Source of the DNA: Pyrodictium delaneyi
GTDB taxonomy: Archaea > Thermoproteota > Thermoprotei_A > Sulfolobales > Pyrodictiaceae
DNA length: 32,000 nt
Assembly: GCF_001412615.1 (NCBI RefSeq)
Contig: NZ_CP013011.1
Location: 1,500,001-1,532,000 of the forward strand
Direction: 5' to 3'
In this document: positions 5,805 through 25,170 of the stretch, in pieces
Numbering within the stretch: position 1 is the stretch's first letter
Layout of the letters: each line of letters starts with the position of its first letter
Notes under the pieces: generated by a model
Seen by the model: the letters and a program-made list of their open reading frames with translations, nothing else
Databases searched by the model: none
What the model was told of the DNA's origin: nothing
Program-made: the position numbers and the translations under genes

Positions 5805-6245
5805 ATGCAAGCGAGGATTATCAAGGGCCGACGTGTAAAGGGTTTTGGCGTCGGTGCTTATTACATATCGCATCCCTATTATAGTGGATGGTTCAGTAAG
5901 TTACTGAGTTGCAAACCATTTCCAGGAACCCTAAATATTGAGACGGACATTGATTGGCGTGAACTAGCCGGGCTATGCGAGCCAATAGTAGTGCCAGAGA
6001 CGGAATGGGAAGGCAAACATCTCGGCGCAGTATATGTCTGGAGAGCCAAAGTGGAGACAAACCAGGGAACCGCAGATGTACTCGTTATACGCCCATTGTT
6101 AAGCAGTCACGAGCCTTCAGTGCTTGAGATCGTGGCATGTGAGAGACTATCCACACTACTCAAAGGAGATACAATCCGTGTAGAAGTCCTTTGCAGAGGC
6201 GGAGACAATGAAAGTAGGCCTAATACTAGCAGGGGGCGAGGGTAG
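5805..6245 (+). CDS. ribK: CTP-dependent riboflavin kinase (archaeal RibK, MJ0056 family)
   Basis: The ORF track gives 5748..6245. I prefer the ATG at 5805 ([17 protein letters not shown]...), which gives 146 aa, close to known archaeal RibK length as I recall it. The diagnostic block is PFPGTLNIE, plus GAYYIS..Y and a C-terminal beta-barrel-like region. Confidence 0.75.
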
Positions 6246-6993
6246 ACGTTTTGGCGGAGACAAGCTCATCGCTTTAACTGACGGTAGGCCCGCAATTGCA
6301 CGGATTAGTGATGTTCTTCAAGCAGCTGGCGCAGAGCTTGTATATGTTGCAACACGGGAAGAGCAACGCTGTAAGATATACACGGATATCGCTAATTTAG
6401 ATGGCTGCATATATGACCCAGACTGGCTTGCATGTGGAGGACCAGCAGCTGCCTTAACGGGATTAGAGTCCCTTCAAGCCCGTGTACTACTAGTAACTCC
6501 AGGAGATATGCCATGGATAACACCAGACGTATTGATTAGACTAGAGGCCTTTATGGAACAGACCAAGGCCGAGGCTGCACTACCAATGCATAGTGGCGGT
6601 TTTCTTGAGACACTAGTAGCCACAATACGTTGGAGCCTTGTGGAAAGATTACCGAAGATACTTGTTCAGCTTTGCAATTTACGAGGAGAACTGAGAGCTA
6701 GTGATCCTTATCGAGCTTCAACGAGACTTACACTTGTTGGCTCGGGACTCCTTACATGGAATCCGATAGTATTTTCCCACATTAATACCCGCGAGCGCCT
6801 ACAAACCCGTGAACCAAAGAATAACCTTGGACCGAAAGACATACTGATTACGGAGCCCCATTTAGATCCATTTGCGCCAAGAGACCAACTATGTCTTAGG
6901 CTAGCACGAGAAAGAAACGAATATCACAAGCTTGGGATAATTCACTTGGAAAGACAGGCATGGAAGGACTTTCTTATGCTTTGTAAACAGTGA
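6208..6993 (+). CDS. mobA: Molybdenum cofactor guanylyltransferase (MobA) with a C-terminal extension
   Basis: N-terminal [20 protein letters not shown] matches the LAGGxxxRxGxDK nucleotide-binding signature. PGDMPWI matches the MobA DxP-type block. It overlaps ribK by 38 nt. At 261 aa it is about 60 aa longer than typical MobA. Confidence 0.75.
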
Positions 6994-7238: not shown

Positions 7239-10200
7239 ATGCCGCCACAACGTAAAAGCAAGCCCGATTTGAATAGACGCTCGTTCCTCAAAGCAACAAC
7301 ATTGATGACTGCACTGGCTATGCTGCCAAGCAGTGCTAGAAGAGCACTTGGCTATACTCCGCCAAAGGAGTATATGCTCGGCGAGATAGGCAATAAGAGT
7401 CTCTATGAGACAGTTGAAATCCGCGGTGTATGCACATACTGTAGCGTTGGTTGCGGAATCATATTCTACAAGCAAGCCAATAAGGTAGTGTACCAGGAAG
7501 GCGATCCAGACAATCCTCTTAACGAGGGCAAGCTCTGTATAAAAGGCAAAGCTTCCATACAGCTGTTCGGCGCCCACAATCCTCTACGTGCCCGTACACC
7601 CCTTATCCGCGTAAATCCCAAGCCCAAGCCCGAGGAGATACTAGAAGCCAGGGACTCCAACGAGCTCATGAAGGTCCTGGAGAAGTATAAGCCAGTCTGG
7701 AAGCCTGTAACCTGGGAAGAGGCCTTCGAATACGTAATGAAGAAGATGAGAGAGATTCTCGAAGCCAATGCTGATGCTGTTAGAGTATACCACCCCTATG
7801 ACGGTAAGATATGTGATAGCAGGAAGGGCTGCTACTTCCGCTTCGGCAACAAGTACCCTGTAATGATAATAGCCGGCGCAAAGATGCTCAACGAGGAAGC
7901 ATACCTCATAAGGAAGATATCAATGCTTATAGGATGCAACAACATAGACCATGATGCGCGGCGTTGTCACTCCACTACAGTGGCCGGCCTAGCTGGCACA
8001 GTTGGCTTCGGCGCACAGACCCAGAGCTTCCCCGACACCCAGTATATCAGCGTCTACCTCATCCTGGGCGGGAACCCTGCCGAGGCCCACCCCGTCTCAA
8101 TGAGGCACGTCATGAAGGGCATCAACCGCGGCACACTAACACTAGTAGTGGTGGACCCGAAGTATGGGCGCACTGCATCCAAGGCCCATATATTCGCATT
8201 CCACCGCCCCGGCACAGACATACCCATAATGTACTACATCCTACACTACGCGTTCTTCGAGCGCAACCCGCCGGTAGACCGGCTCGACACCTTCCGCGAG
8301 TACGCTAAGAGGTTCAACATAGACATAGCTGAGATCGAGGAGATAAAGGACATAGCCAAGAGGTTCACTGCCGAAGAGGTCTCGAGGATAACTGGTGTAC
8401 CGGTCGAGAAGCTTCGCGAGATAGCCCGGCTCTTCGTCGAGAACAGCGGAGTAACCACCGGGTTCAAGAGGTTCGCCTCGATAGAGTGGGCTATGGGGCT
8501 CACTCAGCACCACGTAGGCACACAGAATACCCGCCTCGCCGCCCTGGTTCAGCTAGTCCTGGGCAATCTAGGCTTCCCAGGAGGCGGCCTCAACCCCTAC
8601 CGTGGTCACAGTAATGTGCAAGGCACAACTGACCTATGTATACTAAGCCACATATTCCCAGGCTACATCAAGATCCCGACCAATAGTAAGCAGATCCGCG
8701 CCTACCAGGAGTGGAAGCTGAAGGGCTTCCCCGACGCCTTCAACTGGCGCCCCAGCATGAACACTTGTAAGGCGCTCGGCCTGAAGTGCAGCGATTGCGA
8801 CGATAACGGCGACAACTGCAAGCTAACAGTAAACAGTGGGGCGCTACTCTGGGCATGGTGGTTCATGAACTGGCGCCGCTACGAGCTAGCCATGGGTATC
8901 TTCGTCGGCACGGATCCCGAGGATAAGCCGTGGGACGAGAACAGCGTCGTGATAAGCGATCTACCATTCAACAAGGGCTACACCGAGAACAACTGGTGGA
9001 TGGGCGTATTACTGCCCGACGACCCGAGGACAAAGAAGATCGGCGGAAAGATAGAGGCCATGTGGCTGTTCGGCGAGAACATAGCCATTAGCGACGCTGA
9101 CTCTAAGATAACCATGGCGGCTCTCGCAGCGCTAAAACTCCTAGTAGTGTCCGACATATTCATAACAGAGACCGCATGGTTCGCCGATGTATTCCTCCCG
9201 GCCGCGTTCCAGTACGAGAAGGAGGGCAGCATAACTAACAGCAACCGCTGGATACAGTGGCAGCACCGCGTGGTAGAGCCACCCGGCGATGCCAGGGCAG
9301 ACCTATGGGTGATGTACAAGTTCTGGGACTACATGAGGCGTAGTGGCCTAGTAAAGCTGCCGAGCGAGGAGTACGGTAAGAAGATCGAGCGTGTAGTAGT
9401 GAAGCACCCCGAGGCCGATACGCTGGTCGAGCTCTACCGGAGGAAGATAGAGCCCTACATGAACTATGGCAGCGGTAGATTCCCGTGGACCGACTACCGG
9501 GAAGTAGACCCGGTGCTCGTCTACAAGGAGATCGATGCTGCTGTAGACCTCTACTATGGCCAGTACGACTGGGCCCACGACAAGATACTAGCCATGAGGA
9601 GGATATCCGCGCCACGTGTACCCGGCCAGCCTGACGGTCTGCTCGACAGTGGCACCCTCGAGCACCCTGGCGGGAAGGCCCCGCTGAGGCTCTTCAAGGA
9701 CTGGGGCTGGAGCTGGCCCAGGAACGTCAGGATACTCTACAACCTGTACACATTGGAGAAGACATTCGGCCGCAAGGACAGCTTCACCTTTGAGCCAGGC
9801 AAATGGACCGTAGGCCCAGAGCTAGACGGCAAGACCGTGGAGATCACTGGCGAGGCCGGCGAAATGATAGATGCTAAAACAAAGATGCCTAGACCGGCCT
9901 TCATACCGGGCCACAACTTCGTGATAGGCAAGTACTATAAGCGCGCCTGGACATGCCTCACAGAGAAGTGCAGCCAGAAGACCACGGCCGACATATTCAC
10001 TGGCGCTGCCTACGCCGAAGACATGATACGCTACGGCAAGACCGTCGGCAAGATAGTGTTCTGGAAGCCTGGCGGCGGCTACGAGATAAAGACTGTCGAG
10101 GAGCTCGACATAAGGTGTCCGATGTGCGAGAGCTTCTACTATGACCCCGAGCTGATACTAGACTACGGCAAGGCCGTGTTCTATAAGCCGTACTTCAAGG

Positions 10201-11033
10201 GCACCAAGACCATTAACGGAAAGACGATAGTCTACAAGGACTGGAAGGAATGGCGCCCGGTGCACGACAAGTTCGTAAAAGAATTCACAGCCTGCATTGG
10301 AGGCAATCCTGAGAACTACAAGAAGTGTGTCAAGGAGTTCCTAGACAAGTATGGCGAGTGGTATGCTATAACTGGACCTGACGGCAAGGTATGGGCCTAT
10401 AGTATCGACTACCCGTTCCACTTCGAGCCAGTTGAAAGCCCGAGCATAGAGATGGCAACCAAGTACCCAGCACTAGCCTGGAGGAGGATAGAGAACCTGT
10501 TCTACATAGAGCCACCAGAGCAGATGCCGGAACTATACAAGGCCGTGGTAGCGACCTATGAAGAGCTGAAGAAGTACGCGCCTAGCGATGCAGAAGTGGT
10601 AGTGGTTACCGAGAACCGTCTTGAGGAGCACTTCCACACCGGTATCATGACGCGCAACGTGCCGTACCTTGCCGAGACGCTGCCAGAGCCCTTCGCAGAG
10701 ATCCCAGTCGAGCTAGCCGAAAAGCTGGGTATAAAGAGTGGCGACATAGTAGAGCTGGGCAACAATAGGAACAAGATCTACGTGCGAGCACTGGTAACAC
10801 ACCGCATGCCTAAGCTGAGGATAGGCAACAAGGAGGTCTACGTGATCAACGTGCCGTGGAGCTGGGGTTGGAGCGGCGCCCACAACAGCTTCGACGTAGC
10901 CAACACGATATCAATACTAGTAATGGACATAGTTACTACGATGCAGGAGACGAAGGCGTTCCTAGCATGGGTGAAGAAGGCCAGCCCAGACAAGTACACT
11001 TACCAGGCTAAACCCCGCATACAAGTGTTCTAA
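7239..11033 (+). CDS. fdnG: Formate dehydrogenase-N-type molybdopterin catalytic subunit (Cys-type, Tat-exported), unusually long at 1264 aa
   Basis: Twin-arginine motif NRRSFLK (7272-7292). [4Fe-4S] motif CTYCSVGCG...CIKGK. Active-site block IDHDARRCHSTTVAGL aligns with E. coli FdnG VDNQARVUHGPTVASL, with Cys243 (TGT, 7965-7967) in place of Sec, followed by His244. Further matching blocks: GGNPAEAHP, VVDPKYGRTAS, GLTQHHVGTQN, NPYRGHSNVQGTTD (catalytic Arg), EKEGSITNSNRWIQW and ENRLEEHFHTG. Confidence 0.9.
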   Translation: MPPQRKSKPDLNRRSFLKATTLMTALAMLPSSARRALGYTPPKEYMLGEIGNKSLYETVEIRGVCTYCSVGCGIIFYKQANKVVYQEGDPDNPLNEGKLCIKGKASIQLFGAHNPLRARTPLIRVNPKPKPEEILEARDSNELMKVLEKYKPVWKPVTWEEAFEYVMKKMREILEANADAVRVYHPYDGKICDSRKGCYFRFGNKYPVMIIAGAKMLNEEAYLIRKISMLIGCNNIDHDARRCHSTTVAGLAGTVGFGAQTQSFPDTQYISVYLILGGNPAEAHPVSMRHVMKGINRGTLTLVVVDPKYGRTASKAHIFAFHRPGTDIPIMYYILHYAFFERNPPVDRLDTFREYAKRFNIDIAEIEEIKDIAKRFTAEEVSRITGVPVEKLREIARLFVENSGVTTGFKRFASIEWAMGLTQHHVGTQNTRLAALVQLVLGNLGFPGGGLNPYRGHSNVQGTTDLCILSHIFPGYIKIPTNSKQIRAYQEWKLKGFPDAFNWRPSMNTCKALGLKCSDCDDNGDNCKLTVNSGALLWAWWFMNWRRYELAMGIFVGTDPEDKPWDENSVVISDLPFNKGYTENNWWMGVLLPDDPRTKKIGGKIEAMWLFGENIAISDADSKITMAALAALKLLVVSDIFITETAWFADVFLPAAFQYEKEGSITNSNRWIQWQHRVVEPPGDARADLWVMYKFWDYMRRSGLVKLPSEEYGKKIERVVVKHPEADTLVELYRRKIEPYMNYGSGRFPWTDYREVDPVLVYKEIDAAVDLYYGQYDWAHDKILAMRRISAPRVPGQPDGLLDSGTLEHPGGKAPLRLFKDWGWSWPRNVRILYNLYTLEKTFGRKDSFTFEPGKWTVGPELDGKTVEITGEAGEMIDAKTKMPRPAFIPGHNFVIGKYYKRAWTCLTEKCSQKTTADIFTGAAYAEDMIRYGKTVGKIVFWKPGGGYEIKTVEELDIRCPMCESFYYDPELILDYGKAVFYKPYFKGTKTINGKTIVYKDWKEWRPVHDKFVKEFTACIGGNPENYKKCVKEFLDKYGEWYAITGPDGKVWAYSIDYPFHFEPVESPSIEMATKYPALAWRRIENLFYIEPPEQMPELYKAVVATYEELKKYAPSDAEVVVVTENRLEEHFHTGIMTRNVPYLAETLPEPFAEIPVELAEKLGIKSGDIVELGNNRNKIYVRALVTHRMPKLRIGNKEVYVINVPWSWGWSGAHNSFDVANTISILVMDIVTTMQETKAFLAWVKKASPDKYTYQAKPRIQVF

Positions 11034-11068: not shown

Positions 11069-11863
11069 ATGACCGAGTACGGGATAGTATTCAACCTCGA
11101 TACATGTATAGGTTGCAGGGCATGCCAGACAGCGTGTAAGGTCTGGAACGGGCTGAAAGCTGAAGAGACTAGCTTCAACCCTGAGGGCTACACCAACCCA
11201 GTAGACCTATCGCCGAACACCTGGATGATAATGGAGTTCCTAGAGGGGTTGATGGGCGATTCACCATTCTGGCTCTTCAAGAAGCGCCAGTGCATGCACT
11301 GTAGCGAGGCACCTTGCGCCAAGGCGTGCCCGGTCAACGCCATAGAGGTGCATCCCGAGGGCGCCGTGGTAATCCGTCCCGACAAGTGCATAGGTTGCCG
11401 CTACTGTATCGAGGCCTGCCCCTACGATGTGCCACGCTACGACCCGATATCGAACAAGGTATACAAGTGTACATTCTGTATCGACCGTGTACAGAATGGC
11501 CTCGCACCCGCATGTGTCGAGGCCTGCCCAACTGATGCACTAGAGTTCGGCCCCTGGGAGGAACTGCTCCAGAAGTACCGCGCCGCCGGCTACGAGGTGT
11601 ACGGAGACAACGTTAACGATTACGTCGGACGCACTCACTACCTCTACGTGACGAGGAAGTTCCGGAACTTTGGAGCCGAGGAGGGCAAGAAGTGGTACGA
11701 GGCTATTGGCTTCCCAGAAAACCCGACAGGAGCACTACCACTCATTGAAGCCGGACGCAACGTTGGTGTAGGTCTTGCAGCGCTAGCAGCTGTAGGTGCA
11801 GTAGCTCACGCCATCTACTGGAGGGCTAAGAGGATCGAGGAGAGGAACAAGACCGAGAAATGA
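11069..11863 (+). CDS. fdnH: Formate dehydrogenase iron-sulfur (beta) subunit, four [4Fe-4S] motifs and a C-terminal TM anchor
   Basis: Cys motifs CIGCRACQTAC, CMHCSEAPCAKACP, CIGCRYCIEACP and CTFCIDR...ACVEACP. C-terminal helix VGVGLAALAAVGAVAHAIYW. SD GGTGATC lies at 11058-11064. Confidence 0.88.
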   Translation: MTEYGIVFNLDTCIGCRACQTACKVWNGLKAEETSFNPEGYTNPVDLSPNTWMIMEFLEGLMGDSPFWLFKKRQCMHCSEAPCAKACPVNAIEVHPEGAVVIRPDKCIGCRYCIEACPYDVPRYDPISNKVYKCTFCIDRVQNGLAPACVEACPTDALEFGPWEELLQKYRAAGYEVYGDNVNDYVGRTHYLYVTRKFRNFGAEEGKKWYEAIGFPENPTGALPLIEAGRNVGVGLAALAAVGAVAHAIYWRAKRIEERNKTEK

Positions 11864-11900: not shown

Positions 11901-12629
11901 ATGGGTAAGGAGGTTAAACTCTTCAGTGAACTAGAGATATGGGCACATAAACACGCTATACACTTCGCAGCCGCCCTAATACTAACGGGGCTGATAGTCT
12001 CCGCCAACAGCCTGCCAGACCCCCTAGGAGGGTTCTTCGAGTGGCTAGCATATACACTAGGTACACCAGCATCCTACTTTGCTGAAGCCCTCGGGCTTTC
12101 ACCGCTCGAGCAGAGCTATAGCGCCTATAGCCTCGGTGTACAAGTAGCTAGGATAGTCCACCGGCTCGCAGGAATAGGAATGGCGTTCATAGGCCTAGTG
12201 TGGCTCCTAGGCGAGCTACCACGGGCTAGGAAGTGGCAGATATGGCCCGAAGGCGGTCTAGGAGCTGCCGTCAAGAATCTGATAGACTACTATGTAGGAA
12301 AGAAGGAACCACGGTTCGGCAAGTATAACCTCGGCCAGAAACTGTGGATAATAGGTGTAGTCGTTGGCTTTACGCTACTCTTCATAACAGGCATAATAAT
12401 GTGGTTCCGCGACAGTTTCAGCCAAAGCGTGGTAAACACTGCTCATACGCTACACACATGGCTAGCATGGATAAGTATTGCTGGACTAATAATCCACATA
12501 TATCTCGCCATAGGAATACCAGAGCATAGGCCAATGCTGAGAGCCATGTTCCGCACCGGTACTGCACCAGAAGAGTTTGTGAAGAAGCATCACCCATTAT
12601 ACTATGAGAAAATAAGAAGCGAAGACTAA
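11901..12629 (+). CDS. fdnI: Formate dehydrogenase cytochrome b (gamma) membrane subunit
   Basis: 242 aa with 4-5 predicted TM helices. Conserved-looking His are at helix ends (HKHAIHF, RIVHRL, HTLHTW, IIHIYL), as in the FdnI/cytochrome b561 family. SD GGGGGTG lies at 11887-11893. The gene position after fdnH also fits. Confidence 0.8.
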   Translation: MGKEVKLFSELEIWAHKHAIHFAAALILTGLIVSANSLPDPLGGFFEWLAYTLGTPASYFAEALGLSPLEQSYSAYSLGVQVARIVHRLAGIGMAFIGLVWLLGELPRARKWQIWPEGGLGAAVKNLIDYYVGKKEPRFGKYNLGQKLWIIGVVVGFTLLFITGIIMWFRDSFSQSVVNTAHTLHTWLAWISIAGLIIHIYLAIGIPEHRPMLRAMFRTGTAPEEFVKKHHPLYYEKIRSED

Positions 12630-12741: not shown

Positions 12742-13575
12742 ATGGAGATGGTACTAGACATGACTGCAGGGGAAGTTACACCAGGCGCAGATGCCACTAA
12801 AGAATGTAGTCTAGCCACAACGCTTGTAGCAGGACTACGCATAGCAGCAGACTACAAGTACATAATAGAGGTTGACGACAAATACGTCGGCTCTATACAC
12901 ACGAGCCCGAACTACTTGGCTGACGCCATAGCAGGGCTAGCTCTACGCGATGGATTGGCTACCCTAGGCGATCATGTAGAGCTTGTCGAGGTCAAGCCGT
13001 TAGGCGATATGAGCTTCCTAGTTAGGGCTCGACTTGTCAGGGCTATGGCTACGAGCCTTCCCGATGAGAGACCGCTCGACTGGAACGTCATAGAAAGAGT
13101 CTATCGTGACCTGATAAGGTCTGTGCCTAAGGCTCAATGCCCCTTCGCCGTACACACTGTGGCCGTATACGGGATACCTCAAGACGGTGAACCGCGGAGG
13201 TTGATACTCGTCAGTGATGTCAGCCGCCATAGTGCAGTGCTGAAGGCTGCAGGTATGCTCTCGAGACTTGCTAGCTCTGGGAAACTACGTGGTCTTGCAT
13301 TGCTCGCTGTCTCCACAGGGAGGATATCCGGCGACGCTGTAGAGGCTCTGGCAAGGGCTGGAGTCCGGGTCATAGTTGCCAATCATCATCCGTTGTTGAG
13401 TGGCCTTGCAGCCGCTCTTCGCCATGGTGTTGCACTGGTGCTGCGTAGGCCCGATAGCCGAGGCCTCGCAGTCTACACGTCGCCGGAACTGGTAGTTAAT
13501 GCGCCCCTAGTGTTGTCGGTTAAGGAGGCAGGAGAGCCACCTTCTTATGCTGCCTCTATACTGCCGGTGTGCTGA
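12742..13575 (+). CDS. fdhD: FdhD-like formate dehydrogenase accessory protein (divergent; lacks the CxxC sulfur-relay loop)
   Basis: 277 aa. Blocks align by eye with E. coli FdhD: HTSPNYLADAIAGLALRDGL with ASPKDLEYFALGFSLSEGI; CPFAVHTVAVY with GCTHAAAWM; DVSRHSAVLKAAG with DVGRHVALDKLLG; STGRISGDAVEALARAGVRVIVA with [22 protein letters not shown]. Confidence 0.7.
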   Translation: MEMVLDMTAGEVTPGADATKECSLATTLVAGLRIAADYKYIIEVDDKYVGSIHTSPNYLADAIAGLALRDGLATLGDHVELVEVKPLGDMSFLVRARLVRAMATSLPDERPLDWNVIERVYRDLIRSVPKAQCPFAVHTVAVYGIPQDGEPRRLILVSDVSRHSAVLKAAGMLSRLASSGKLRGLALLAVSTGRISGDAVEALARAGVRVIVANHHPLLSGLAAALRHGVALVLRRPDSRGLAVYTSPELVVNAPLVLSVKEAGEPPSYAASILPVC

Positions 13576-13727: not shown

Positions 13728-14666
13728 GTGAGGTTTCGTGTTATGGGTAGTGGGAAGCACGTACTTCTGCGCGACAGATTTCCCGAGATAAGAAGTTGGC
13801 TCGGGAAATTCTCTGAAGAGGACAAGAGGAACGAATCTTCTTACCGCATACTGGAGGCCCTATACGAGGTCCAGGCACGTATAGAGGAGGAGGCTCTGCG
13901 CCGCCTGGAGGAGGCTGGACTAATTGAGGAAGTAGCTAAGGCAGCACGGAAGATAGCATTTCAACGCGTACCTCTCATCATAATTCTTGGTGGTCTCCCT
14001 AAACCGCTTATGGATGAAGAATTTCTGCGCCGCTCGATGCTCGATATAATAGACGCTGTAGCAAGGGAGGGCTACAGTCTCAAAGGTGCTACAGCTTCCC
14101 TCCGCGATCCAGTGGAGAAGGCAGCATTAAGTATCTCTCAGCTCGTTGAAGAGCTATTGGAAGGTCGAGAAGATAGTATCCATGCATGGGCAGGCGCTGT
14201 CTCAGCTGACCGGGACCGTGTTCGGGCGCTGGCCCTTTGGTTAATCCAGCCCTTGCTTAGTGCACTACGCGTAGCTGCTAGCAACGCATTAGGTTGGGTT
14301 CGGGAATACTGGCAGCAAGGTCTTTGTCCAGTCTGTGGTTCTGTCACACGCGTCGGGTACATGAAGGGGGAAGGGAGGAAGCAGTTCCTCCGTTGCCAGG
14401 TCTGCGGAATGGAGTGGGTCTTTCCCCGCGCTCGATGTCCCTATTGTGGCACGGACAAGCCAGGCGATGTGGTATTCTATCAACCTCTGGAGTCTAGGCA
14501 ATGGTTACGGCTTTACTATTGCCGCCATTGCGGAGCCTACTGGAAGATAGTAGATGAGGAGGATGAAGCCGCCGCCAAGAGCGGGCTACCACCAAGAGAA
14601 CTTTACGACGTCTATACTTTTATCCTCGACTCTGTAGCCGAGGCAATGACCTCCAAGAGGCAGTAG
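13728..14666 (+). CDS. fdhE: FdhE formate dehydrogenase maturation protein (four CxxC rubredoxin-like knuckles)
   Basis: C-terminal region GLCPVCGS...FLRCQVCGMEW...RARCPYCG...YYCRHCGAYWK matches the FdhE pattern CPVCGS..RYL.C.LC..EW...R.KC..C......C..C..Y.K. A GTG is at 13728 and an ATG at 13743. Confidence 0.85.
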   Translation: MRFRVMGSGKHVLLRDRFPEIRSWLGKFSEEDKRNESSYRILEALYEVQARIEEEALRRLEEAGLIEEVAKAARKIAFQRVPLIIILGGLPKPLMDEEFLRRSMLDIIDAVAREGYSLKGATASLRDPVEKAALSISQLVEELLEGREDSIHAWAGAVSADRDRVRALALWLIQPLLSALRVAASNALGWVREYWQQGLCPVCGSVTRVGYMKGEGRKQFLRCQVCGMEWVFPRARCPYCGTDKPGDVVFYQPLESRQWLRLYYCRHCGAYWKIVDEEDEAAAKSGLPPRELYDVYTFILDSVAEAMTSKRQ

Positions 14667-14804
14667 GCCCTAGGGTGTACAAGTTGTCGGAAGATGGCGG
14701 CTTCGTAGAGGAAATGCCTGAAGACTTCTATGCTGCTGAAGAGCTTGAATTAGGCCGCTTGTCGAAATGCAAGAGTCTGGGGAAAAAACGGAAGAAAAAG
14801 ACCG

Positions 14805-15437
14805 TTGACAAGGTGCTCGGAGATAACGAGCAGAGGCAGTAAGAGCGATAGCAGGAGGAGAGTCTCGTTGCCGCTCCCAGGACTCTTGAATGCTGTAGCA
14901 TATGCGCCTAGACACCGTGACGAACTCTTGGGGATGTTAGAAGAGACTACGAATAAGATTGTAGAAGTAATGAAGACCACTATGCCACAGCATGCTATCA
15001 ACCTCTACACAATGTTAGCATCAGCCAAGGCATTGCCCGTAGCAGTAAAGGGAGGCCCGCCGCCGCTAAACCCGCTACAGTATGCCGACTTTGCTGCCGA
15101 TATCATAGCCCGGTTAGAGTCTACTGGTTTTTACGAGGAAGCTAGGCCCCTTCGACGCGCCCTCATGTCGGGAAAGCTACCCGTCTACGATCTTGCCCGT
15201 GGCTACTTGCTCGGAGACTTAGACTTTATAGTCTCGGTGTCAAGGGAGCTTGGTGCCGCCGAGTGGATTGTCGCATTCCTCGCCGCAGCAGTAGCTGCAG
15301 GCGCTGCCAGGGCTATACGGGCCGTGCTAGAATCTGATAGGAGCCTGCCGGCTCTAGGCCAGGATGCTACGTGCCCTGTGTGTGGTAGATCCTTGGAGAA
15401 TGGACGTTGTAGTTTCTGTCTCTACGCACAGAGGTAG
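14805..15437 (+). CDS. Hypothetical protein with a C-terminal CPVCG...CSFC zinc-ribbon; possible truncated FdhE-like paralogue
   Basis: The ORF-track start is TTG. A more plausible ATG at 14934 (MLEETTNKIV...) gives 167 aa. The body is helical and Ala-rich, ending in ATCPVCGRSLENGRCSFC. It follows fdhE on the same strand. Confidence 0.45.
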   Translation: MTRCSEITSRGSKSDSRRRVSLPLPGLLNAVAYAPRHRDELLGMLEETTNKIVEVMKTTMPQHAINLYTMLASAKALPVAVKGGPPPLNPLQYADFAADIIARLESTGFYEEARPLRRALMSGKLPVYDLARGYLLGDLDFIVSVSRELGAAEWIVAFLAAAVAAGAARAIRAVLESDRSLPALGQDATCPVCGRSLENGRCSFCLYAQR

Positions 15438-15491
15438 TCAATGCTGTAGCGTATATTTGCTCTCTCATCTTCTTCTGGCCATTGGTGAAGG

Positions 15492-16877
15492 GTGTACAGC
15501 TCCATGACTGTCCGCATCGCCGTTGTAGGTGGCGGAGCTGCCGGCATGGCTGCTGCTAGTAGAGCTAAGAGGCTGCTAGGCGATAAGGCAGAGGTTACGG
15601 TGTTCGAGAAAGGAAGCTGGATTAGCTTTGCTCTCTGTGGAACTCCCTATTATATCGGCTGCCGAGTCCCAACTCTTGACATGCTAGTTCACTATCCTCT
15701 TGAAGAGTTTACGCGACGCCGCGGGATAAACGTCAAGCTGAAAACCATTGTGACCGAGGTCGACCCTGGAGCACGGCAGCTCCGCTACCGCAGCCTTGCC
15801 ACAGGCGAGGAGGGAGTCTACGAGTACGACTATCTTGTCCTGGCTACTGGCGCCCGGCCCCGCGTCCCCGGCGAGTGGCTTCGCTACCGCAACGTGTATA
15901 CTCTTCACAGCCTAGGCGACGCCGACCGTTTACGTGCCACGGTAGTTAGAAACGACGTAAAGCGCGTCGTAGTCATAGGCGGTGGTTATACCGGGGTTGA
16001 GGCTGCTGAAAACCTTGCCCGGCTCGGCCGTAGAGTAATCCTGATTCATAGCGGCGAATGGCTCCTCAACAAGATGCTAGACCACGATATGGCTGGGGAG
16101 CTCATGGAGAGGGCGCAGAATGCAGGCATAGAGCTAGTCCTGGGCCACCGTGTTACCGACATAGAAGGTGCTGGCGATATAGCTGCAAGCGTCTTACTCG
16201 ACAACGGCGAGCGCATAGATGGCGACGTGTTCCTAGCCGCGAGCGGCATTGAGCCAAACACTACATTAGCCGAGCAGATGGGTCTAAAGATAGGCGAGAC
16301 GGGGGCAGTCTGGACTAACGAGAGGATGGAGACAAGTATCAAGGATGTCTACGCTGTAGGCGACGTGGCTGAAACACGTGATCTCGTGACAGGCGGGCGG
16401 GTCTGGTGGCCATTTGCAACTGCAGCCAACAAGATGGGCTTCGTAGCTGGGACTAACATAGCAGGCGGTGATGCAGTATTCCCCGGCGTAGTCCGTACAA
16501 GCGCTATGGGTGCTTTCGGGCTTTACGTTGCAGCCACCGGCCTCAACGAGGAAGAGGCACGTCGACACGGTTTCGATGCAGTGGCTGTGAAGGTTAAGGC
16601 TCCTACTAAGGCCCGCTACATGGGCGAGCCAGGCGAGATACTGCTCAAAGTTGTAGCTGATGCCGAGACAGGGAAACTATTGGGCGCACAAGCTGTGTCT
16701 AGTGACCCTAGCAGCTTCTGGAGAGTAAACGTTATCGCATCACTAATATGGCGAGGTGCAACTGTCTGGGACCTCTTTAGCGTTGATGTAGGCTACTGGC
16801 CAGGTCTCAATCCCGTATGGGATCCGCTAACCATAGCTGCTAGGCTATTCTTCCGGAAACTCGGCACAAAACCTTGA
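15492..16877 (+). CDS. FAD-dependent pyridine nucleotide-disulfide oxidoreductase, CoA-disulfide reductase / NADH oxidase / NSR family
   Basis: FAD fold VVGGGAAGMAAA. Single redox Cys motif SFALCGTPYYI (the SFxxCGxPYY type seen in CoADR/Nox). NAD(P) fold VVVIGGGYTGVEAAE. GD motif YAVGDVAE. The likely true start is the ATG at 15504. Confidence 0.8.
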   Translation: MYSSMTVRIAVVGGGAAGMAAASRAKRLLGDKAEVTVFEKGSWISFALCGTPYYIGCRVPTLDMLVHYPLEEFTRRRGINVKLKTIVTEVDPGARQLRYRSLATGEEGVYEYDYLVLATGARPRVPGEWLRYRNVYTLHSLGDADRLRATVVRNDVKRVVVIGGGYTGVEAAENLARLGRRVILIHSGEWLLNKMLDHDMAGELMERAQNAGIELVLGHRVTDIEGAGDIAASVLLDNGERIDGDVFLAASGIEPNTTLAEQMGLKIGETGAVWTNERMETSIKDVYAVGDVAETRDLVTGGRVWWPFATAANKMGFVAGTNIAGGDAVFPGVVRTSAMGAFGLYVAATGLNEEEARRHGFDAVAVKVKAPTKARYMGEPGEILLKVVADAETGKLLGAQAVSSDPSSFWRVNVIASLIWRGATVWDLFSVDVGYWPGLNPVWDPLTIAARLFFRKLGTKP

Positions 16878-19886: not shown

Positions 19887-20285
19887 TCAGCGTTTTTCTG
19901 CTGCAAGTGGATCACCTATTAGGCTGGAACGGTTTGCTGTAGCCGGCGGCACGATGTTACTCGTTTTGTAGGCGTGTCGTGGACAGATGTCTACGCAGTG
20001 GTAACAGAACATACAGAGATCGTAATGCACTACCGGATATCGACGTGGCCTCTTAGCATTTTCCTGGCCTGGTAGTAGCTTCATCTCTATCGCTCCCGGC
20101 GGGCACTCTATAGCGCATAGACTACAGCCTATACACTTCTCCACATCAACCACGTGGAGGCCGCGATACCCACCACTAGGAGTTGGGCCGGTTTTTAGGC
20201 CGTATTCTATTGTGGCAGGCCGCCTAGCCAAGTTTGATACGAGTTCACTTAGCATGATAAGTATACGCGGCTTCACAACTTCCAC
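19887..20285 (-). CDS. nuoI: 2x[4Fe-4S] ferredoxin subunit of the membrane-bound hydrogenase/complex-I-like enzyme (NuoI/MbhN-like)
   Basis: CIGCSLCAIECPPGAI and CMFCYHCVDICPRHA, separated by a spacer as in NuoI. It is the last gene of the operon. It has a GTG start. Confidence 0.85.
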   Translation of the reverse strand: MEVVKPRILIMLSELVSNLARRPATIEYGLKTGPTPSGGYRGLHVVDVEKCIGCSLCAIECPPGAIEMKLLPGQENAKRPRRYPVVHYDLCMFCYHCVDICPRHAYKTSNIVPPATANRSSLIGDPLAAEKR

Positions 20286-20290
20286 CCCTT

Positions 20291-21469
20291 CTATTGATCT
20301 GCCCGCCGACGAGCTAGTTGACGTAAGTTCTCTAGACGTTCGCGCCCAGTACGTTCATCAACTACTATAACGCGCTCCATGCATGATATGCAGGGATCAA
20401 GACTTGCTAGTATGACCGGTATATCCGCCAATGTGGCACCTTGGTAGGCTACGAGACTGTTCAGTATGTTGGGGATACTCGGCGTCCTTATCTTTACTCT
20501 ATAAGGCTTAGTGCCGCCCCGACTAACAACATGGTATAGGAGTTCACCACGTGGAGCCTCAACTCGTGATATTGCCTCACCCTCACGGAACCGGCGAGGC
20601 GGAGTCTTCAGACTGTTAATTGGACCGCTTGGCAGTTTTTCTAGCACTTGACGTATAATGTTTATAGACTCTAACGCCTCCTCGAACCGGACCAGCATAC
20701 GGGCGAGTGCATCGCCCTCACTACGTCTAATTACTTGGAAGTCTAGCTCCCCGTACCAAGCATAAGGATCATCGCGTCTGACATCGATATCTACGCCGGA
20801 GCCACGAGCTGTTGGCCCGACAAGTCCATGACTTACGGCCACACTGTACGGTATTACCCCTATGCCTTCAAGCCTACGGCGGAGCAACCTATCGCTTGTA
20901 TAGACTTCCATATAGTATTTTATCCGCTGTTCGAGAATATCCATGCTACGTCTTATCTTCTCTGCTACTTCAGGACTTAGGTCTCGACGAACGCCTCCTG
21001 GCCATACATAATCGGCTATGACTCGGTTTCCTGTGAGCAGCTCCTTTAGGTGCATTACCTTCTCGCGATCCCTCATTATCAGCATGAAGAGGCTCTCAAA
21101 TCCAGCTATCTCTGCAACCACGGCTGCTAGGAGCATGTGACTATGAAGCCTCTCGAGCTCCATTGCTAGGACTCGGAGAGCTTGAGCGCGAGGCGGCGGC
21201 TCGATACCATTTATCTCTTCGATGGCCTGGACATAGCAGTTAGAATGCATCATGTTGCATATACCGCAGACACGTGTCACTATATAGAGGGTTTTTAGGA
21301 ACGTATTGCTCTCAGCGAGCTTCTCTATCCCACGATGGTTATAGCCCGTAACTACCTCTACCCCGACTACGTCTTCACCGTCAACGCGTACACGGAGCAT
21401 AATGGGTTCGTGTAGTGCAGGATGCTGAGGCCCAATAGACACTTCTATTACCGGCATCCCCGTTATCAC
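20291..21469 (-). CDS. nuoD: Group-4 [NiFe]-hydrogenase large subunit (NuoD/MbhL/EchE-like) with an intact Ni-Fe ligand set
   Basis: L1 motif RVCGICNMMH (Cys68 at 21268-21266, Cys71 at 21259-21257). L2 motif DPCISCMER (Cys360 at 20392-20390, Cys363 at 20383-20381). A 26-aa tail VIVVDERTG... follows it. Also GPQHPALHEP and EAPRGEL blocks. GTGA overlap with the upstream gene. Confidence 0.9.
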   Translation of the reverse strand: MITGMPVIEVSIGPQHPALHEPIMLRVRVDGEDVVGVEVVTGYNHRGIEKLAESNTFLKTLYIVTRVCGICNMMHSNCYVQAIEEINGIEPPPRAQALRVLAMELERLHSHMLLAAVVAEIAGFESLFMLIMRDREKVMHLKELLTGNRVIADYVWPGGVRRDLSPEVAEKIRRSMDILEQRIKYYMEVYTSDRLLRRRLEGIGVIPYSVAVSHGLVGPTARGSGVDIDVRRDDPYAWYGELDFQVIRRSEGDALARMLVRFEEALESINIIRQVLEKLPSGPINSLKTPPRRFREGEAISRVEAPRGELLYHVVSRGGTKPYRVKIRTPSIPNILNSLVAYQGATLADIPVILASLDPCISCMERVIVVDERTGRERLENLRQLARRRADQ

Positions 21470-21906
21470 CTCTTATTCCAGTCCTTGCGTAACGGATATT
21501 CTCCAGCTACATCTGGCGGTGTGAAGAACCCTAAGCGGAGACTCTCATTACCCTCAAAGACTACGCCAAAGAGGTCGTAGACCTCTTGTTCATAGGGCAC
21601 TGCAGCGGGGAGTAACAGTGCCAAGCTTGGTGCTCTTGGCTGGCTTCGCGGTACCCGCGTCTTTAGCGTGAGTAGGCTCTTCTCCGGGATAATCCAGAAC
21701 ACATAGTCTAGCTCTATACTGTCCTCTTCAGGGAGATCTATGGCAGTTATCGCTGAGAGGTAAACTCCACGAGGGTAGGCCTCTAGCAAGCTTTTAACTA
21801 CTCCTGGCAGTTTCCAGGGATCATCAATACGTACTTCTAGACGTCGTTGCTTCTTTTCCACAATCTCTACTTTACTGTTCTTCAGCCACAGTTTTAGCTG
21901 CTTCAA
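21466..21906 (-). CDS. nuoC: NuoC/MbhK-like 30-kDa-type subunit
   Basis: 146 aa. YEQEVYDLFGVVFEGN and a R(K)DW-type C-terminus (YPLRKDW) are typical of NuoC/HycE-N/MbhK. It sits between the small and large subunits. Confidence 0.8.
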   Translation of the reverse strand: MKQLKLWLKNSKVEIVEKKQRRLEVRIDDPWKLPGVVKSLLEAYPRGVYLSAITAIDLPEEDSIELDYVFWIIPEKSLLTLKTRVPRSQPRAPSLALLLPAAVPYEQEVYDLFGVVFEGNESLRLGFFTPPDVAGEYPLRKDWNKR

Positions 21907-22405
21907 TTCTGTCAGCCTCCTCTCGGATACTCTTAAGGAGCCTAACTATGGCCTGGAGTATCGCGTCAGGACGCGGCGGGCATCCGGGAATATAGAGATC
22001 CACCGGCACGACGTTGTCGGCTCCACCAACTACACTGTAGCTATTGCGGAACACATTGCCAGAGATAGCACATGTACCAACTGCAACCACGTGTTTTGGG
22101 TCAGGTGTCTGTTCGTAGAGACGACGAAGTCTCTCAGCAGACTTCTTGGTTAGTGCACCCGTCACAATGATTATGTCGGCATGCCGAGGGTTCGGGGCCA
22201 GTCTTATACCGAAGCGTTCTGGATCGTAGAGGGGTGTTAGGGCCGCAAGAACCTCTATGTCACAGCCGTTGCATGCGCCGGTGTTAAAGTGGAGTAACCA
22301 GGGTGAACGTGAGAGCATTCTTAAGGTGAAAGAACTCCCACGATGCTTCACATTTTGCAAGGGGATATACGCCTCCGCCAAATAGAGTATATAGCTACGA
22401 AACAT
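21872..22405 (-). CDS. nuoB: Group-4 hydrogenase small subunit (NuoB/MbhJ-like), [4Fe-4S] N2-type cluster
   Basis: FNTGACNGCDIE (hydrogenase-type CxxC rather than the complex-I CC), GTCAISG and IPGCPPRP. The start is either 22405 (a TATA-like box lies ~32 nt upstream) or the internal ATG at 22318 (MLSRSPWLLHFNTG). Confidence 0.85.
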   Translation of the reverse strand: MFRSYILYLAEAYIPLQNVKHRGSSFTLRMLSRSPWLLHFNTGACNGCDIEVLAALTPLYDPERFGIRLAPNPRHADIIIVTGALTKKSAERLRRLYEQTPDPKHVVAVGTCAISGNVFRNSYSVVGGADNVVPVDLYIPGCPPRPDAILQAIVRLLKSIREEADRIEAAKTVAEEQ

Positions 22406-22436
22406 AGTTGATTAGGGTTACCCCGTAGAAGCCGGG

Positions 22437-22444
22437 ATAAAGAA
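22437..22444 (-). promoter_or_regulatory. TATA-like element (TTCTTTAT on the minus strand) in the 74-nt gap between the membrane-arm genes and the B-C-D-I module
   Basis: This is the only sizeable gap inside the 11-gene cluster. The T/A element sits about 32 nt upstream of the ATG at 22405, which fits a short-leader internal promoter. Confidence 0.25.
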
Positions 22445-22479
22445 CCCGCTGCCACAGCATACACGATTACACACCCCCG

Positions 22480-23880
22480 CTAGCGGATTAGACTGACTAT
22501 ACTGTCCACGATGGGGCCCGGCAATACACCTAGAGCTATTGCGGCCGCTGCTAGGATGAGGAGTGGTACAAGAAGCCTAGACGGAGCCTCAGAAGGCAGT
22601 GTACGAGGAACCGTTACCGACGGATGCCAGAATACTCGTAGCCAGAACCTAAGCGCATAGGCTGCAGAGGATAATACAGCAAGTGCTAGCGCAGCGACTG
22701 CTGCTATGCCGTAGACCCGCCCTACCCCTAGGACTATGAGTAGCTCACCTGGGAACATTGCAAAGGGCGGTGCCCCGGCCAGACTCATGGCTGCTACGAA
22801 GGCTGCGAAGGCTGTGACGGGCATGCTGCGGGCGAAAACTCCCATGCTGCGTATGTCGTCGCTTCCGCTCTGCTTCTCGAGCACTCCTGCTACGAGGAAG
22901 AAGAGGGGCTTTACGATGCCGTGTGCCAGGGCTGCTAGTACTCCACCAGCGGCCGCCAGGGGATGGCCAGCGGCAAGCCCGGCGTAGATTATGCCGGAGT
23001 GCCCAATGCTGCTGTAGGAGGCTATGAAGCCTAACCGGTTAGCTGAGAGGGCTCGGAGGGCTCCCACTATTGCCGAGGTTATGCCCAGCCACATCGCGGC
23101 CTCTAGCATGGCTGTGGTTTGGTGGGGCCAGTGGAATCCTGTCGTGAACCTGTACATTCCGTAGGCGCCGATGCTTGTGACCACGCCTGCGAGTAAGCCT
23201 GCCGCGAATGGGGGCACTGAGGTGTAGGTACGTGGGAGCCATGTGTGGAATGGGAAGACACCGAGTTTTATTGCAAAAGCTATAAGTGCCAATGGTAGCG
23301 CTATTGTTGATAGGCTAGCATCCACGACATTGCCTCCGAAGACCGGGGCATTGGCTGCTAGTAGGGCGCCTACCGCTACGAGAAGTAGCAGGGAGCCTGC
23401 ATGCATGTATATGAAGAATTCTGGGGCTCTTCTAGGGCTCCAGAGCCAAACTAGCACCGTGGACACTATGAGTACTAGTTCCCAGAACACATAGAAGAGC
23501 GGCAAGCTATAGGCGTAGACGAGCCCAATAACCGAAGCATGTATAGCAGTTACAACTATCTCAAAGACTGCCTCCCCTCCTCTACATGTTACGCCAGCTC
23601 TGCCTGCATATACTATGACTGTTATCGCTACTAGGGCAGAGAGGGCTGCGAAGAGCTTCGAGACAGTGTCTAGCCCCATACACACTGGAGCGTTGACGAC
23701 AGCTAACCATGAACGACATACAGCGTCGCCGTTGGCAAGCAGCGTAATAATAGCGGACACTGTTATCGAGATTATTGAGGCTGCCCTCCTACCAGCTAGG
23801 ACTGCTGCAGCACCTAATCCAAGCACTATTAGCGACGTCGCATACGCTACTGGTACGCCGAGCACGTTAGCCACCTCCAA
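22480..23880 (-). CDS. nuoN: Antiporter-like subunit (NuoN/NuoM/MrpD family)
   Basis: 466 aa, about 14 TM helices. FAIKLGVFPFHTWLPRTY matches the K..g..P.H.WLPdA signature. It overlaps the upstream gene by 14 nt. Confidence 0.8.
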   Translation of the reverse strand: MEVANVLGVPVAYATSLIVLGLGAAAVLAGRRAASIISITVSAIITLLANGDAVCRSWLAVVNAPVCMGLDTVSKLFAALSALVAITVIVYAGRAGVTCRGGEAVFEIVVTAIHASVIGLVYAYSLPLFYVFWELVLIVSTVLVWLWSPRRAPEFFIYMHAGSLLLLVAVGALLAANAPVFGGNVVDASLSTIALPLALIAFAIKLGVFPFHTWLPRTYTSVPPFAAGLLAGVVTSIGAYGMYRFTTGFHWPHQTTAMLEAAMWLGITSAIVGALRALSANRLGFIASYSSIGHSGIIYAGLAAGHPLAAAGGVLAALAHGIVKPLFFLVAGVLEKQSGSDDIRSMGVFARSMPVTAFAAFVAAMSLAGAPPFAMFPGELLIVLGVGRVYGIAAVAALALAVLSSAAYALRFWLRVFWHPSVTVPRTLPSEAPSRLLVPLLILAAAAIALGVLPGPIVDSIVSLIR

Positions 23881-25168
23881 GCATGGGGACTAGGCCGGGA
23901 TAGACTCCCAGCACGAGTAGAAGCAGCGAATACGCAAGGAGAGGGAGCCAGGGGACGTTGACGCCATGGGATACTTGATATCCACCCATTATCAAGTAAC
24001 GGAAGATGTAGACCGCTGATACTAGGAAGAAGATTGCCGATACTACTGCTAGCCAAGTGTATCCAGCTGCAGCGAATGCTGCTACTACTGAGAGTTTCGC
24101 GGCAAACCCATAGAGTGGCGGCGTCCCGGCTAGGCTGAGTAACCCCGTCACTTGTGCTATTTTGCCGATGCTTGTCTTTTCGTAACGGTGAGCAGTTATT
24201 ACCAGGGCTATGGACATGTTGCTAGCTGTTATGAAGTATATCGGGACTAGAGGGTCGCGTATACCAGATAGCGCGTAGACGACTGCGAGCAGGACAGTGT
24301 AGCCAGCGTCGCTCACCATACTGTAGCCTATCATGCGACGTAGCTCCTTCTGAGCTAGAGCAGAGAATTCGCCCACAACCATGCTCGCCATTGCTAGGAG
24401 GACAAGGAGCGCCGCGATTATTGGGCCGAGCAAGACTCCCGAGGAGGCTATCAGCTTGAAGAACACCAATAATACTGGAGCATCTACAAGTAGGATGGCA
24501 GTAACCACTCCGAGCAAGTGAGCGCCTTGGACTACATCGGGCAGCCACATATAGAATGGTGCAAGTCCGGCCTCAAGCGCCAGCCCCGCTGTGAGGAAGA
24601 CGAGGCCAAGGAGCACAGGGAGAGTCGCCCATGACACCCCTCCCAGGGGTGCTTCGGTAAAGCTGTGAAAGCCCTGACTGTAGAGTAGCCCCATGCCAAC
24701 AATTATGAGGGCTGTCGCCAGTATCGACGAGTAAAGGTACTTCACTGCAACTTCTCCACTACGCCGGCCTCCAAGACTATAGAGACCGGCTAAGGCGGCG
24801 GCAGCCGTCTCTATACCGGCGAGCAAGGTTAGTAGGCTAGCCGAGTAGAGCACGAGGAACCCGCCTAGAACGGCTAAGATAACTAGCGGTGCCCTCACCT
24901 TATCTAGCTCATCTACTAGACTGGCTAGGGCTAGTATCTCTGCCAGTAGGAGGAGTACCGCCATAGCATTATACTCCGTCGTCACGTATAGGATGTTTAG
25001 GCCAGCATACCTTACCATACCCTGGGGCAATACCCAAACAATTACCATCATGTAGATCATTGTGGCTAGTGTCGTGGCTGCTGCTGCACGGCGCGGAAGG
25101 ACAGCAGCGATAGCTGCGGCGGCTAGAGGAACGCCGGCTACCAGGGTTAGTAGCTGGTATACGTCCAT
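23867..25168 (-). CDS. nuoM: Antiporter-like subunit (NuoM/NuoN/MrpD family), divergent at conserved charged residues
   Basis: 433 aa and polytopic. LAGIETAAA is the TM5 Glu block. LALEAGLAPFYMWLPDVVQGA aligns with the NuoN block FK...PFH.W.PDVYQGA, but has Glu199 and Tyr206 where Lys and His are expected. Confidence 0.75.
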   Translation of the reverse strand: MDVYQLLTLVAGVPLAAAAIAAVLPRRAAAATTLATMIYMMVIVWVLPQGMVRYAGLNILYVTTEYNAMAVLLLLAEILALASLVDELDKVRAPLVILAVLGGFLVLYSASLLTLLAGIETAAAALAGLYSLGGRRSGEVAVKYLYSSILATALIIVGMGLLYSQGFHSFTEAPLGGVSWATLPVLLGLVFLTAGLALEAGLAPFYMWLPDVVQGAHLLGVVTAILLVDAPVLLVFFKLIASSGVLLGPIIAALLVLLAMASMVVGEFSALAQKELRRMIGYSMVSDAGYTVLLAVVYALSGIRDPLVPIYFITASNMSIALVITAHRYEKTSIGKIAQVTGLLSLAGTPPLYGFAAKLSVVAAFAAAGYTWLAVVSAIFFLVSAVYIFRYLIMGGYQVSHGVNVPWLPLLAYSLLLLVLGVYPGLVPMLGGG

Positions 25169-25170
25169 GG

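Follow-up and report, generated by a model that had tools for sequence, protein, structure and literature searches.

Pyrodictium delaneyi Su06 encodes, close behind a genuine fdhE, a protein of 189 amino acids (aa; Pyrde_1517, referred to here as ORF2) that is very probably a paralogue derived from FdhE. ORF2 is C-terminally truncated: what remains is the helical domain with a shortened form of the first cysteine knuckle, while the second knuckle domain of FdhE and its C-terminal helices have been lost. Its gene lies in the window analysed here, 32,000 nucleotides (nt) of contig NZ_CP013011.1 (positions 1,500,001 to 1,532,000), and its origin is most likely a tandem duplication of fdhE. What would such a protein do? 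Our reading, held at a probability of about 0.55, is that ORF2 is a lineage-restricted truncated FdhE paralogue acting as an accessory factor in FdhE-dependent maturation. fdhE is required only for periplasmic formate dehydrogenases (FDHs) that depend on twin-arginine translocation (Tat), and FdhE interacts with the catalytic subunits of these enzymes (PMC10609526). It binds iron via its CX2C motifs, and its exact role is unknown (PMC10609526). The elements at the centre of the argument are the following.

13728–14666, + strand: fdhE (Pyrde_1515), 312 aa, helical domain and two Cys4 knuckle domains
14684–14842 (52 aa, TTG start; RefSeq WP_156328035.1) or 14675–14842 (55 aa, GTG start; GenBank Pyrde_1516), + strand: small conserved gene
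14854–14862, + strand: Shine–Dalgarno-like site GGAGGAGAG, read from the sequence, its last base 5 nt from the TTG of ORF2
14868–15437, + strand: ORF2 (Pyrde_1517), 189 aa, FdhE-like helical domain and single shortened Cys4 knuckle
15051–15398, + strand: segment of ORF2 (residues 62–177) aligned by hhalign with residues 89–208 of FdhE and very probably homologous to them, with GGPPPL at 15051–15068 and YEEARPLR at 15132–15155
15372–15419, + strand: Cys4 knuckle CPVCG-x7-CSFC of ORF2 (Cys169, 172, 181 and 184), its CPVCG in register with the first CPVCG of FdhE

Gene model, selection and expression of ORF2

Where does ORF2 begin? The first-pass annotation of this DNA had placed the gene at 14934–15437, with a product of 167 aa, but the start is TTG 14868. 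ATG 14934 is ruled out because the residues upstream of it are conserved in the ORF2 alignment (an N-terminus of the type M-x-LPGL), the lengths of the homologues fit the longer form, and the 189-aa product matches the database entry Pyrde_1517/ALL01560.1 exactly; a 167-aa version is absent from the record. A GGAGG-type site and a TTG start precede ORF2 in all five lineages in which the gene was found in context (L and P numbers are our handles for loci and proteins): the TTG stands at 14868 in the window, at 10001 in L001 (P. abyssi), at 10001 in L002 (P. occultum), at 6023 in L021 and at 2817 in L024. In P. occultum the small gene and ORF2 overlap by 4 nt, the TTG running into the stop codon of the small gene (TTGA). 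The window has same-strand gaps of 17 nt between fdhE and the small gene and of 25 nt between the small gene and ORF2. The conserved weak TTG suggests that less ORF2 than FdhE is made.

A search of 5.8 billion proteins returned only eight relatives of ORF2, with identities of 58–94%; the full-length ones are 189–192 aa long and those bearing a source name are all from Pyrodictium. Their alignment has 88 invariant columns, which include all four cysteines. The C-terminal end of ORF2 reads ATCPVCGRSLENGRCSFC; it holds the only two CxxC motifs of the protein (CPVC169 and CSFC181), and the chain stops five residues past the second. The single knuckle pair beginning with CPVCG that had been pointed out earlier is thus present, and its cysteines are invariant in all full-length homologues as well as in the distant relative P0046 (CPVCG...CPICG).

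ORF2 is under purifying selection, with non-synonymous divergence (pN) of 0.20–0.29 against synonymous divergence (pS) of 0.57–0.74, and its product is listed under 'Detected, not tagged' in Table S4 of the P. delaneyi proteome, obtained by mass spectrometry (MS; PMC8105010). ORF2 is a real, expressed gene under selection. Could it still be a decaying, functionless remnant of a duplicated fdhE? The truncation, the weak TTG and a rate of evolution above that of its neighbours would fit decay, as would one copy from a metagenome-assembled genome (MAG), P0008, that is frameshifted at its C-terminus. The frame is nevertheless intact in five lineages, the invariant columns include the four cysteines, pN/pS lies well under 1 with synonymous sites near saturation, and the protein is made. 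Decay is largely refuted already and we consider it barely credible.

Relationship of ORF2 to FdhE

Is ORF2 homologous to FdhE? Profile comparison gives the clearest answer. hhalign aligned the ORF2 family with an 18-sequence FdhE alignment at a probability of 96.6% (E = 6.2e-10), and an extended ORF2 family with FdhE at 98.0% (E = 1.6e-13). The match spans about 116 columns in which residues 62–177 of ORF2 are colinear with residues 89–208 of FdhE, and it extends into the common CPVCG. FdhEs from outside the Pyrodictiaceae sufficed on their own (97.4%, E = 1.5e-11). Controls were negative: reversed FdhE alignments gave E values of 0.25–0.4, and 20 column-shuffled ones gave 0.11–0.86, with scores of 10–18 for these decoys against 81–93 for the real alignments. 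When the knuckle was removed, ORF2 still matched FdhE in an unchanged register (E = 2.3e-6 and 3.2e-5), and a knuckle-less subgroup of relatives, fused to an AF2212-like domain and described below, by itself matched the identical FdhE segment (E = 5.3e-5). When ORF2 was compared with 27 large ORFs from the window, FdhE alone matched (E = 1.6e-8; none of the rest below 0.08). In AlphaFold2 models, the helices of ORF2 (predicted local distance difference test, pLDDT, 89.4) agree with those of FdhE at 83% of positions in the hhalign register, compared with 46–66% in shifted registers. Direct BLASTP of the two proteins gives 27% identity over 63 aa, running through CPVCG. The earlier suggestion of a truncated FdhE paralogue is in this way supported.

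The comparison with the FdhE family (TIGR01562/IPR024064; Pfam FdhE_N, FdhE_central and FdhE_C; structure 2FIY from Pseudomonas aeruginosa) also defines what was lost. ORF2 shares the helical domain leading into CPVCG and, like FdhE, belongs to the operon of a molybdoenzyme of FDH-N type with a Tat signal, adjoining a genuine fdhE. FdhE has about 310 aa and four CxxC motifs with a knuckle spacing of 19, whereas ORF2 has 189 aa and two CxxC motifs with a spacing of 8; the FdhE_C region and the C-terminal helices are found in FdhE and not in ORF2. At low stringency hhalign pairs the second CxxC of ORF2 with the third motif of FdhE, with negligible confidence.

Several observations weigh against this relationship. 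Foldseek searches of the PDB with the ORF2 model gave a best E value of 2.5, with nothing at or below 0.001, and 2FIY was not in the 50 best of 83 matches; Foldseek has difficulty with queries that are all-helical. No FdhE model in Pfam or NCBIfam matched ORF2 at E ≤ 1, sequence searches of the PDB with ORF2 found no link to FdhE or to any other solved structure, and a profile search of 1.84 billion representative sequences retrieved six proteins only, none of them an FdhE. By eye, the proline of G-x-PL is the only near-invariant helical residue of FdhE that appears to be kept; P175 and W195 are not conserved in ORF2.

Could the resemblance then be chance, Ala/Leu-rich helices and a common CPVCG knuckle being compared through profiles of low diversity? 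Both profiles are indeed shallow (effective number of sequences 1.5–2.5 for the ORF2 family), identity between ORF2 and FdhE is 21–24%, neither Foldseek nor HMMER ever reaches FdhE, and CPVCG also occurs in unrelated knuckles, as weak matches to the Rad50 zinc hook illustrate. Such an explanation has to contend with the low scores of the shuffled and reversed controls, with a match that outlives removal of the knuckle and is found in the same region by the knuckle-less subgroup, with FdhE as the sole match among the local ORFs, with helix boundaries in register, and with the tandem position of the genes. We regard chance as improbable and descent from FdhE as well supported.

The genuine FdhE

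The upstream gene had been called a textbook FdhE with four CxxC knuckles. Pyrde_1515 is a genuine FdhE with four such motifs (CPVC200, CQVC223, CPYC237 and CRHC265, invariant across 18 FdhE homologues), of a divergent archaeal type to which 'textbook' does not apply. It is genuine yet divergent because its score for Pfam FdhE_central lies above the threshold (29.1 bits, cut-off 27, E = 1.1e-6) and has the fold of 2FIY, while it misses the curated cut-off of TIGR01562 (43.5 bits against 187.65, at E = 2.8e-11). FdhE_C is reached at E = 0.075 only and FdhE_N was unmatched in the Pfam scan. A four-sequence FdhE profile matches PDB 2FIY (E = 1.2e-8). The AlphaFold2 model (pLDDT 92.3) has chains A and B of 2FIY as its top Foldseek matches (E = 3.4e-7 and 8.4e-7; probability 1.00; template modelling score 0.44–0.56), the next match lying at E = 0.12. 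The start of fdhE is ambiguous between GTG 13728 and ATG 13743. FdhE was quantified in the proteome and did not differ between ferrihydrite and nitrate (PMC8105010).

fdhE shares its strand and operon with genes for a molybdopterin alpha subunit bearing an RRSFLK leader, for beta and gamma subunits and for FdhD. These and the other neighbours needed below were assigned as follows.

6208–6993, + strand: MobA-like gene
7239–11033, + strand: molybdopterin alpha subunit (Pyrde_1511), 1264 aa, RRSFLK Tat motif (Pfam/NCBIfam)
11069–11863, + strand: 4Fe-4S beta subunit gene (Pfam/NCBIfam)
11901–12629, + strand: cytochrome b gamma subunit gene (Pfam/NCBIfam)
12742–13575, + strand: FdhD gene (Pfam/NCBIfam)
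15492–16877, + strand: flavoprotein of Nox/CoA-disulfide-reductase type (Pyrde_1518; Pfam Pyr_redox_2, 1.8e-63, and Pyr_redox_dim)

What enzyme is this? Pyrde_1511 falls far short of the curated FDH-N model (428 bits, cut-off 814). It retains a Cys243–His244 pair and an RGHSNVQG motif, which we take to be active-site motifs of FDH type. Pyrde_1511–1513 are strongly up on ferrihydrite compared with nitrate (log2 fold change about 6–11), P. delaneyi cell extracts showed no FDH activity, and in the view of the authors of that work the complex belongs to the molybdopterin oxidoreductases, has no known function and is a candidate for an Fe(III) reductase (PMC8105010).

The small gene between fdhE and ORF2

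The stretch 14667–14804 had been described as a spacer containing only a weak Lys-rich ORF. That ORF is a conserved gene, Pyrde_1516. The possibility that this ORF is noise is ruled out by identity across species (71–83% in P. abyssi and P. occultum), by 13 homologues, all of Pyrodictiaceae type, by pN of 0.13–0.28 against pS of 0.43–0.90, and by the exact match of the 55-aa product of 14675–14842 to Pyrde_1516. The small gene is under purifying selection, and its product is among the MS-detected proteins of P. delaneyi (PMC8105010). In the peptide, the N-terminal half is acidic, the core (PEDFYA-EEL-LG-LSKC) is invariant and the tail, of KKRKKK type, is rich in Lys and Arg. A Pfam scan gave no match. 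hhalign against FdhE and against ORF2 stayed below a probability of 0.3%, which rules out the peptide as a fragment of either. The gene sits directly 3' of fdhE in every sampled locus with undisturbed context, including Hyperthermus butylicus and a number of Pyrodictiaceae contigs, frequently with an overlap of 4 nt. Its product could be an FdhE partner particular to this lineage.

Two further loci (L007 7328–7727 and L015 ~560–860) carry a scar in which a MobA-like gene is followed by 58 codons left over from the C-terminus of FdhE and then by a small-gene homologue, apparently intact and with an N-terminal extension. We draw no inference from this scar on whether the small gene acts alone, since the two contigs are ~95% identical and L015 is frameshifted relative to L007.

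Distribution of the cassette and of the helical domain

How far does the arrangement extend? Synteny in relatives, whose absence the first-pass annotation had named as part of a refutation, held up: the order fdhE, small gene, ORF2 is kept in five Pyrodictium lineages (P. delaneyi, L024, P. abyssi, L021–L023 and P. occultum), across which ORF2 identity falls to 58%. Of the families that it had proposed for profile comparison, FdhE matched, as described above; Pfam scans and PDB sequence searches showed no similarity to the TorD/DmsD/NarJ or rubredoxin families.

Beyond these lineages, ORF2 has few relatives. Apart from its direct homologues, the 1.84 billion representatives contain only P0046, a protein of 194 aa on a 1.2-kilobase contig, and three clusters (P0047–P0049) in which an AF2212-like domain (best E = 3.9e-11) precedes the helical domain and the knuckle is missing. 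The loci encoding such AF2212-fused proteins are given here.

L010 1907–2665, AF2212-fused gene
L011 7989–8675, AF2212-fused gene
L012 587–1285, AF2212-fused gene
L019 227–904, AF2212-fused gene
L020 1750–2367, AF2212-fused gene

These uncharacterised proteins are 26–33% identical to ORF2 and share with it the motifs GPPPL, Y/F-E/D-E-T/A-R-P-L-R and PYD. They differ from it in the extra N-terminal AF2212-like domain, which resembles AbrB/MazE-type antitoxins, in having no Cys4 site and in not standing beside fdhE. First scans of a genome collection and of metagenomes for ORF2 relatives confirmed nothing; second scans returned Pyrodictiaceae loci only, plus one weak match in a Methanoregulaceae MAG (L013 8001–8165; tblastn, 34% over 58 residues, E = 4e-5 within the candidate set). 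The AF2212-fused gene of L011 lies near an ABC transporter of apparent tungstate/molybdate type.

Some of this distribution speaks against a role tied to the neighbouring enzyme. ORF2 evolves faster than the genes before it, with identities among lineages of 58–79% compared with 71–88% for FdhE and 75–93% for the small gene. No ORF2 follows the small gene in Hyperthermus butylicus or in other Pyrodictiaceae with the same operon, whose alpha subunits are equally large (1265–1266 aa), and the operon of a Korarchaeota-like MAG, with fdhE and an alpha subunit of 1208 aa, lacks both the small gene and ORF2. Because alpha subunits of 1208–1266 aa occur without ORF2 at that locus, co-occurrence does not support the earlier proposal that ORF2 serves the oversized alpha subunit specifically. 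In P. abyssi (L001 7848–8873), fdnGHI–fdhD has been cleanly lost between the MobA-like gene and fdhE, with the cassette intact. Finally, the AF2212-fused genes are single genes in Pyrodictiaceae MAGs, with neighbours encoding PAP2, radical-SAM, TrkH and acylphosphatase proteins and no FDH genes.

Has ORF2 then, although derived from FdhE, ceased to serve an FDH-type enzyme? Its helical domain would in that case be a general protein-binding or regulatory module and its position a relic of the duplication. We judge this unlikely on balance, yet the location of the AF2212-fused genes away from FDH genes is the main reason why it remains a serious rival: P0046 and the AF2212-fused, knuckle-less clusters are the sole wider relatives, and none of the latter stands beside FDH genes. 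In Pyrodictium, ORF2 is one gene away from a PAP2 gene, just as PAP2 genes neighbour some of the AF2212-fused ones. Hyperthermus-type operons manage without ORF2 at that position, and P. abyssi retains it without fdnGHI–fdhD at the locus. The last point tells us little: L021, a metagenomic relative of P. abyssi at 87–92% identity, has the full operon, so the deletion appears recent and carries little weight, and we have accordingly down-weighted retention of the cassette as proof of an FDH-independent role. Against such a role stand also the tight spacing or overlap of ORF2 with the small gene and the conserved Shine–Dalgarno-like site and TTG, which favour co-expression with fdhE, and a gene order held in five lineages while sequence identity fell as low as it did.

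A different partner has to be considered on the other side of ORF2. The adjacency of ORF2 and the flavoprotein gene is kept in the window, P. abyssi, P. occultum and L021, and some flavoproteins of the superfamily of Pyrde_1518 reduce rubredoxins. Is ORF2, with its Cys4 site, a rubredoxin-like one-metal redox carrier that partners Pyrde_1518 and not FdhE? We find this quite improbable. The gap of 44–64 nt between ORF2 and the flavoprotein gene is AT- and pyrimidine-rich with a TATA-like TATATTT, pointing to a separate promoter; the single-Cys motif SFALCGTPY of Pyrde_1518 is, we assume, that of Nox/CoADR enzymes and not of the rubredoxin-reductase type; ORF2 has no Pfam rubredoxin match and its knuckle spacing of eight residues is unlike that of rubredoxin; and the knuckle-less relatives do not adjoin such flavoproteins. 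In the window, the distance from the end of ORF2 to GTG 15492 of Pyrde_1518 is 54 nt, and the flavoprotein probably starts at ATG 15504 (MTVRIAVVGGG) rather than at that GTG. The spacer 15438–15504 is pyrimidine-rich and contains TATATTT, consistent with a promoter of its own for Pyrde_1518.

Proposed role of ORF2

A role in Tat proofreading or maturation, as suggested earlier, is plausible from the operon position. How would an accessory factor in FdhE-dependent maturation work? ORF2 is the last gene of the tightly spaced cassette of fdhE, 52-aa peptide and ORF2 that follows the fdnGHI–fdhD-like genes. In the mechanism we propose, its product would be a cytoplasmic accessory factor whose four cysteines bind one metal ion, Fe or Zn. 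Its FdhE-type helical domain might bind FdhE itself, or else the alpha subunit or its Tat leader as a common client, and ORF2 could thereby assist or modulate FdhE-dependent maturation and export of the Tat-exported molybdoenzyme. We infer co-transcription with fdhE, metal binding, the partners and the maturation role alike. That ORF2 acts in the maturation of the neighbouring enzyme in particular is a tentative proposal, a little short of even odds, drawn from homology, operon position and expression.

A bolder version would make FdhE, the 52-aa peptide and ORF2 a Pyrodictium-specific three-part chaperone or escort system in which ORF2 pairs with FdhE through the helical domain, this domain being a portable client-binding module that has been combined with a Cys4 knuckle in one case and an AF2212-like partner in the other. 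We see this as speculative and rather doubtful. If true, the system would tune assembly and Tat export of a molybdoenzyme that is induced 50–100-fold or more on ferrihydrite and for which Fe(III) reduction has been proposed in place of an FDH role.

How does ORF2 compare with other accessory proteins? Genes for NarJ, TorD and DmsD, which are small cytoplasmic proteins made up of helices, adjoin those of Tat-dependent molybdoenzymes, and the job of these proteins resembles the one proposed here. Unlike ORF2, NarJ-type proteins lack a Cys4 knuckle; when 12 members of the ORF2 family were scanned against Pfam, none matched the NarJ/TorD/DmsD family at E ≤ 1, and sequence searches of the PDB with ORF2 gave no TorD, DmsD or NarJ chain at E ≤ 10. 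Rubredoxins and short zinc ribbons share with ORF2 a CxxC...CxxC pair at the C-terminus, but the knuckle of ORF2 is an appendage to a helical domain of 160 residues. Zinc-ribbon models match ORF2 at chance level only (E = 0.005–1), and no rubredoxin model of Pfam does.

Remainder of the window

Elsewhere in the window, a gene for the RuBisCO large subunit (Pyrde_1506; 10–1347, + strand) occupies the left end, and a membrane-bound cluster resembling NiFe-hydrogenase and Mrp antiporter genes lies at 19887–27018 (− strand), as judged by synteny with P. abyssi and Pfam. An Rfam scan of the window gave no matches.

Significance

Our literature search found no mention of FdhE-like or truncated FdhE paralogues. 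Pyrde_1516 and Pyrde_1517 are annotated merely as hypothetical, the former having entered RefSeq through re-annotation. ORF2 is thus a lineage-restricted variant of a known accessory-protein family, previously unreported in the literature searched and of modest general interest; since the family does not extend beyond the Pyrodictiaceae, its impact on the field at large is modest. FdhE itself is among the least understood maturation factors of molybdoenzymes, with iron sites and a helical domain to which no mechanism has been assigned (PMC10609526). A half-FdhE, made of the helical domain and one metal site, forms together with its knuckle-less relatives a natural domain-dissection series in which client binding might be separated from the need for metal. 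For the organism, Pyrde_1515–1517 are accessory genes beside a complex reported as strongly induced in Fe(III) oxide respiration (PMC8105010), and they would be worth including when that complex is expressed heterologously.

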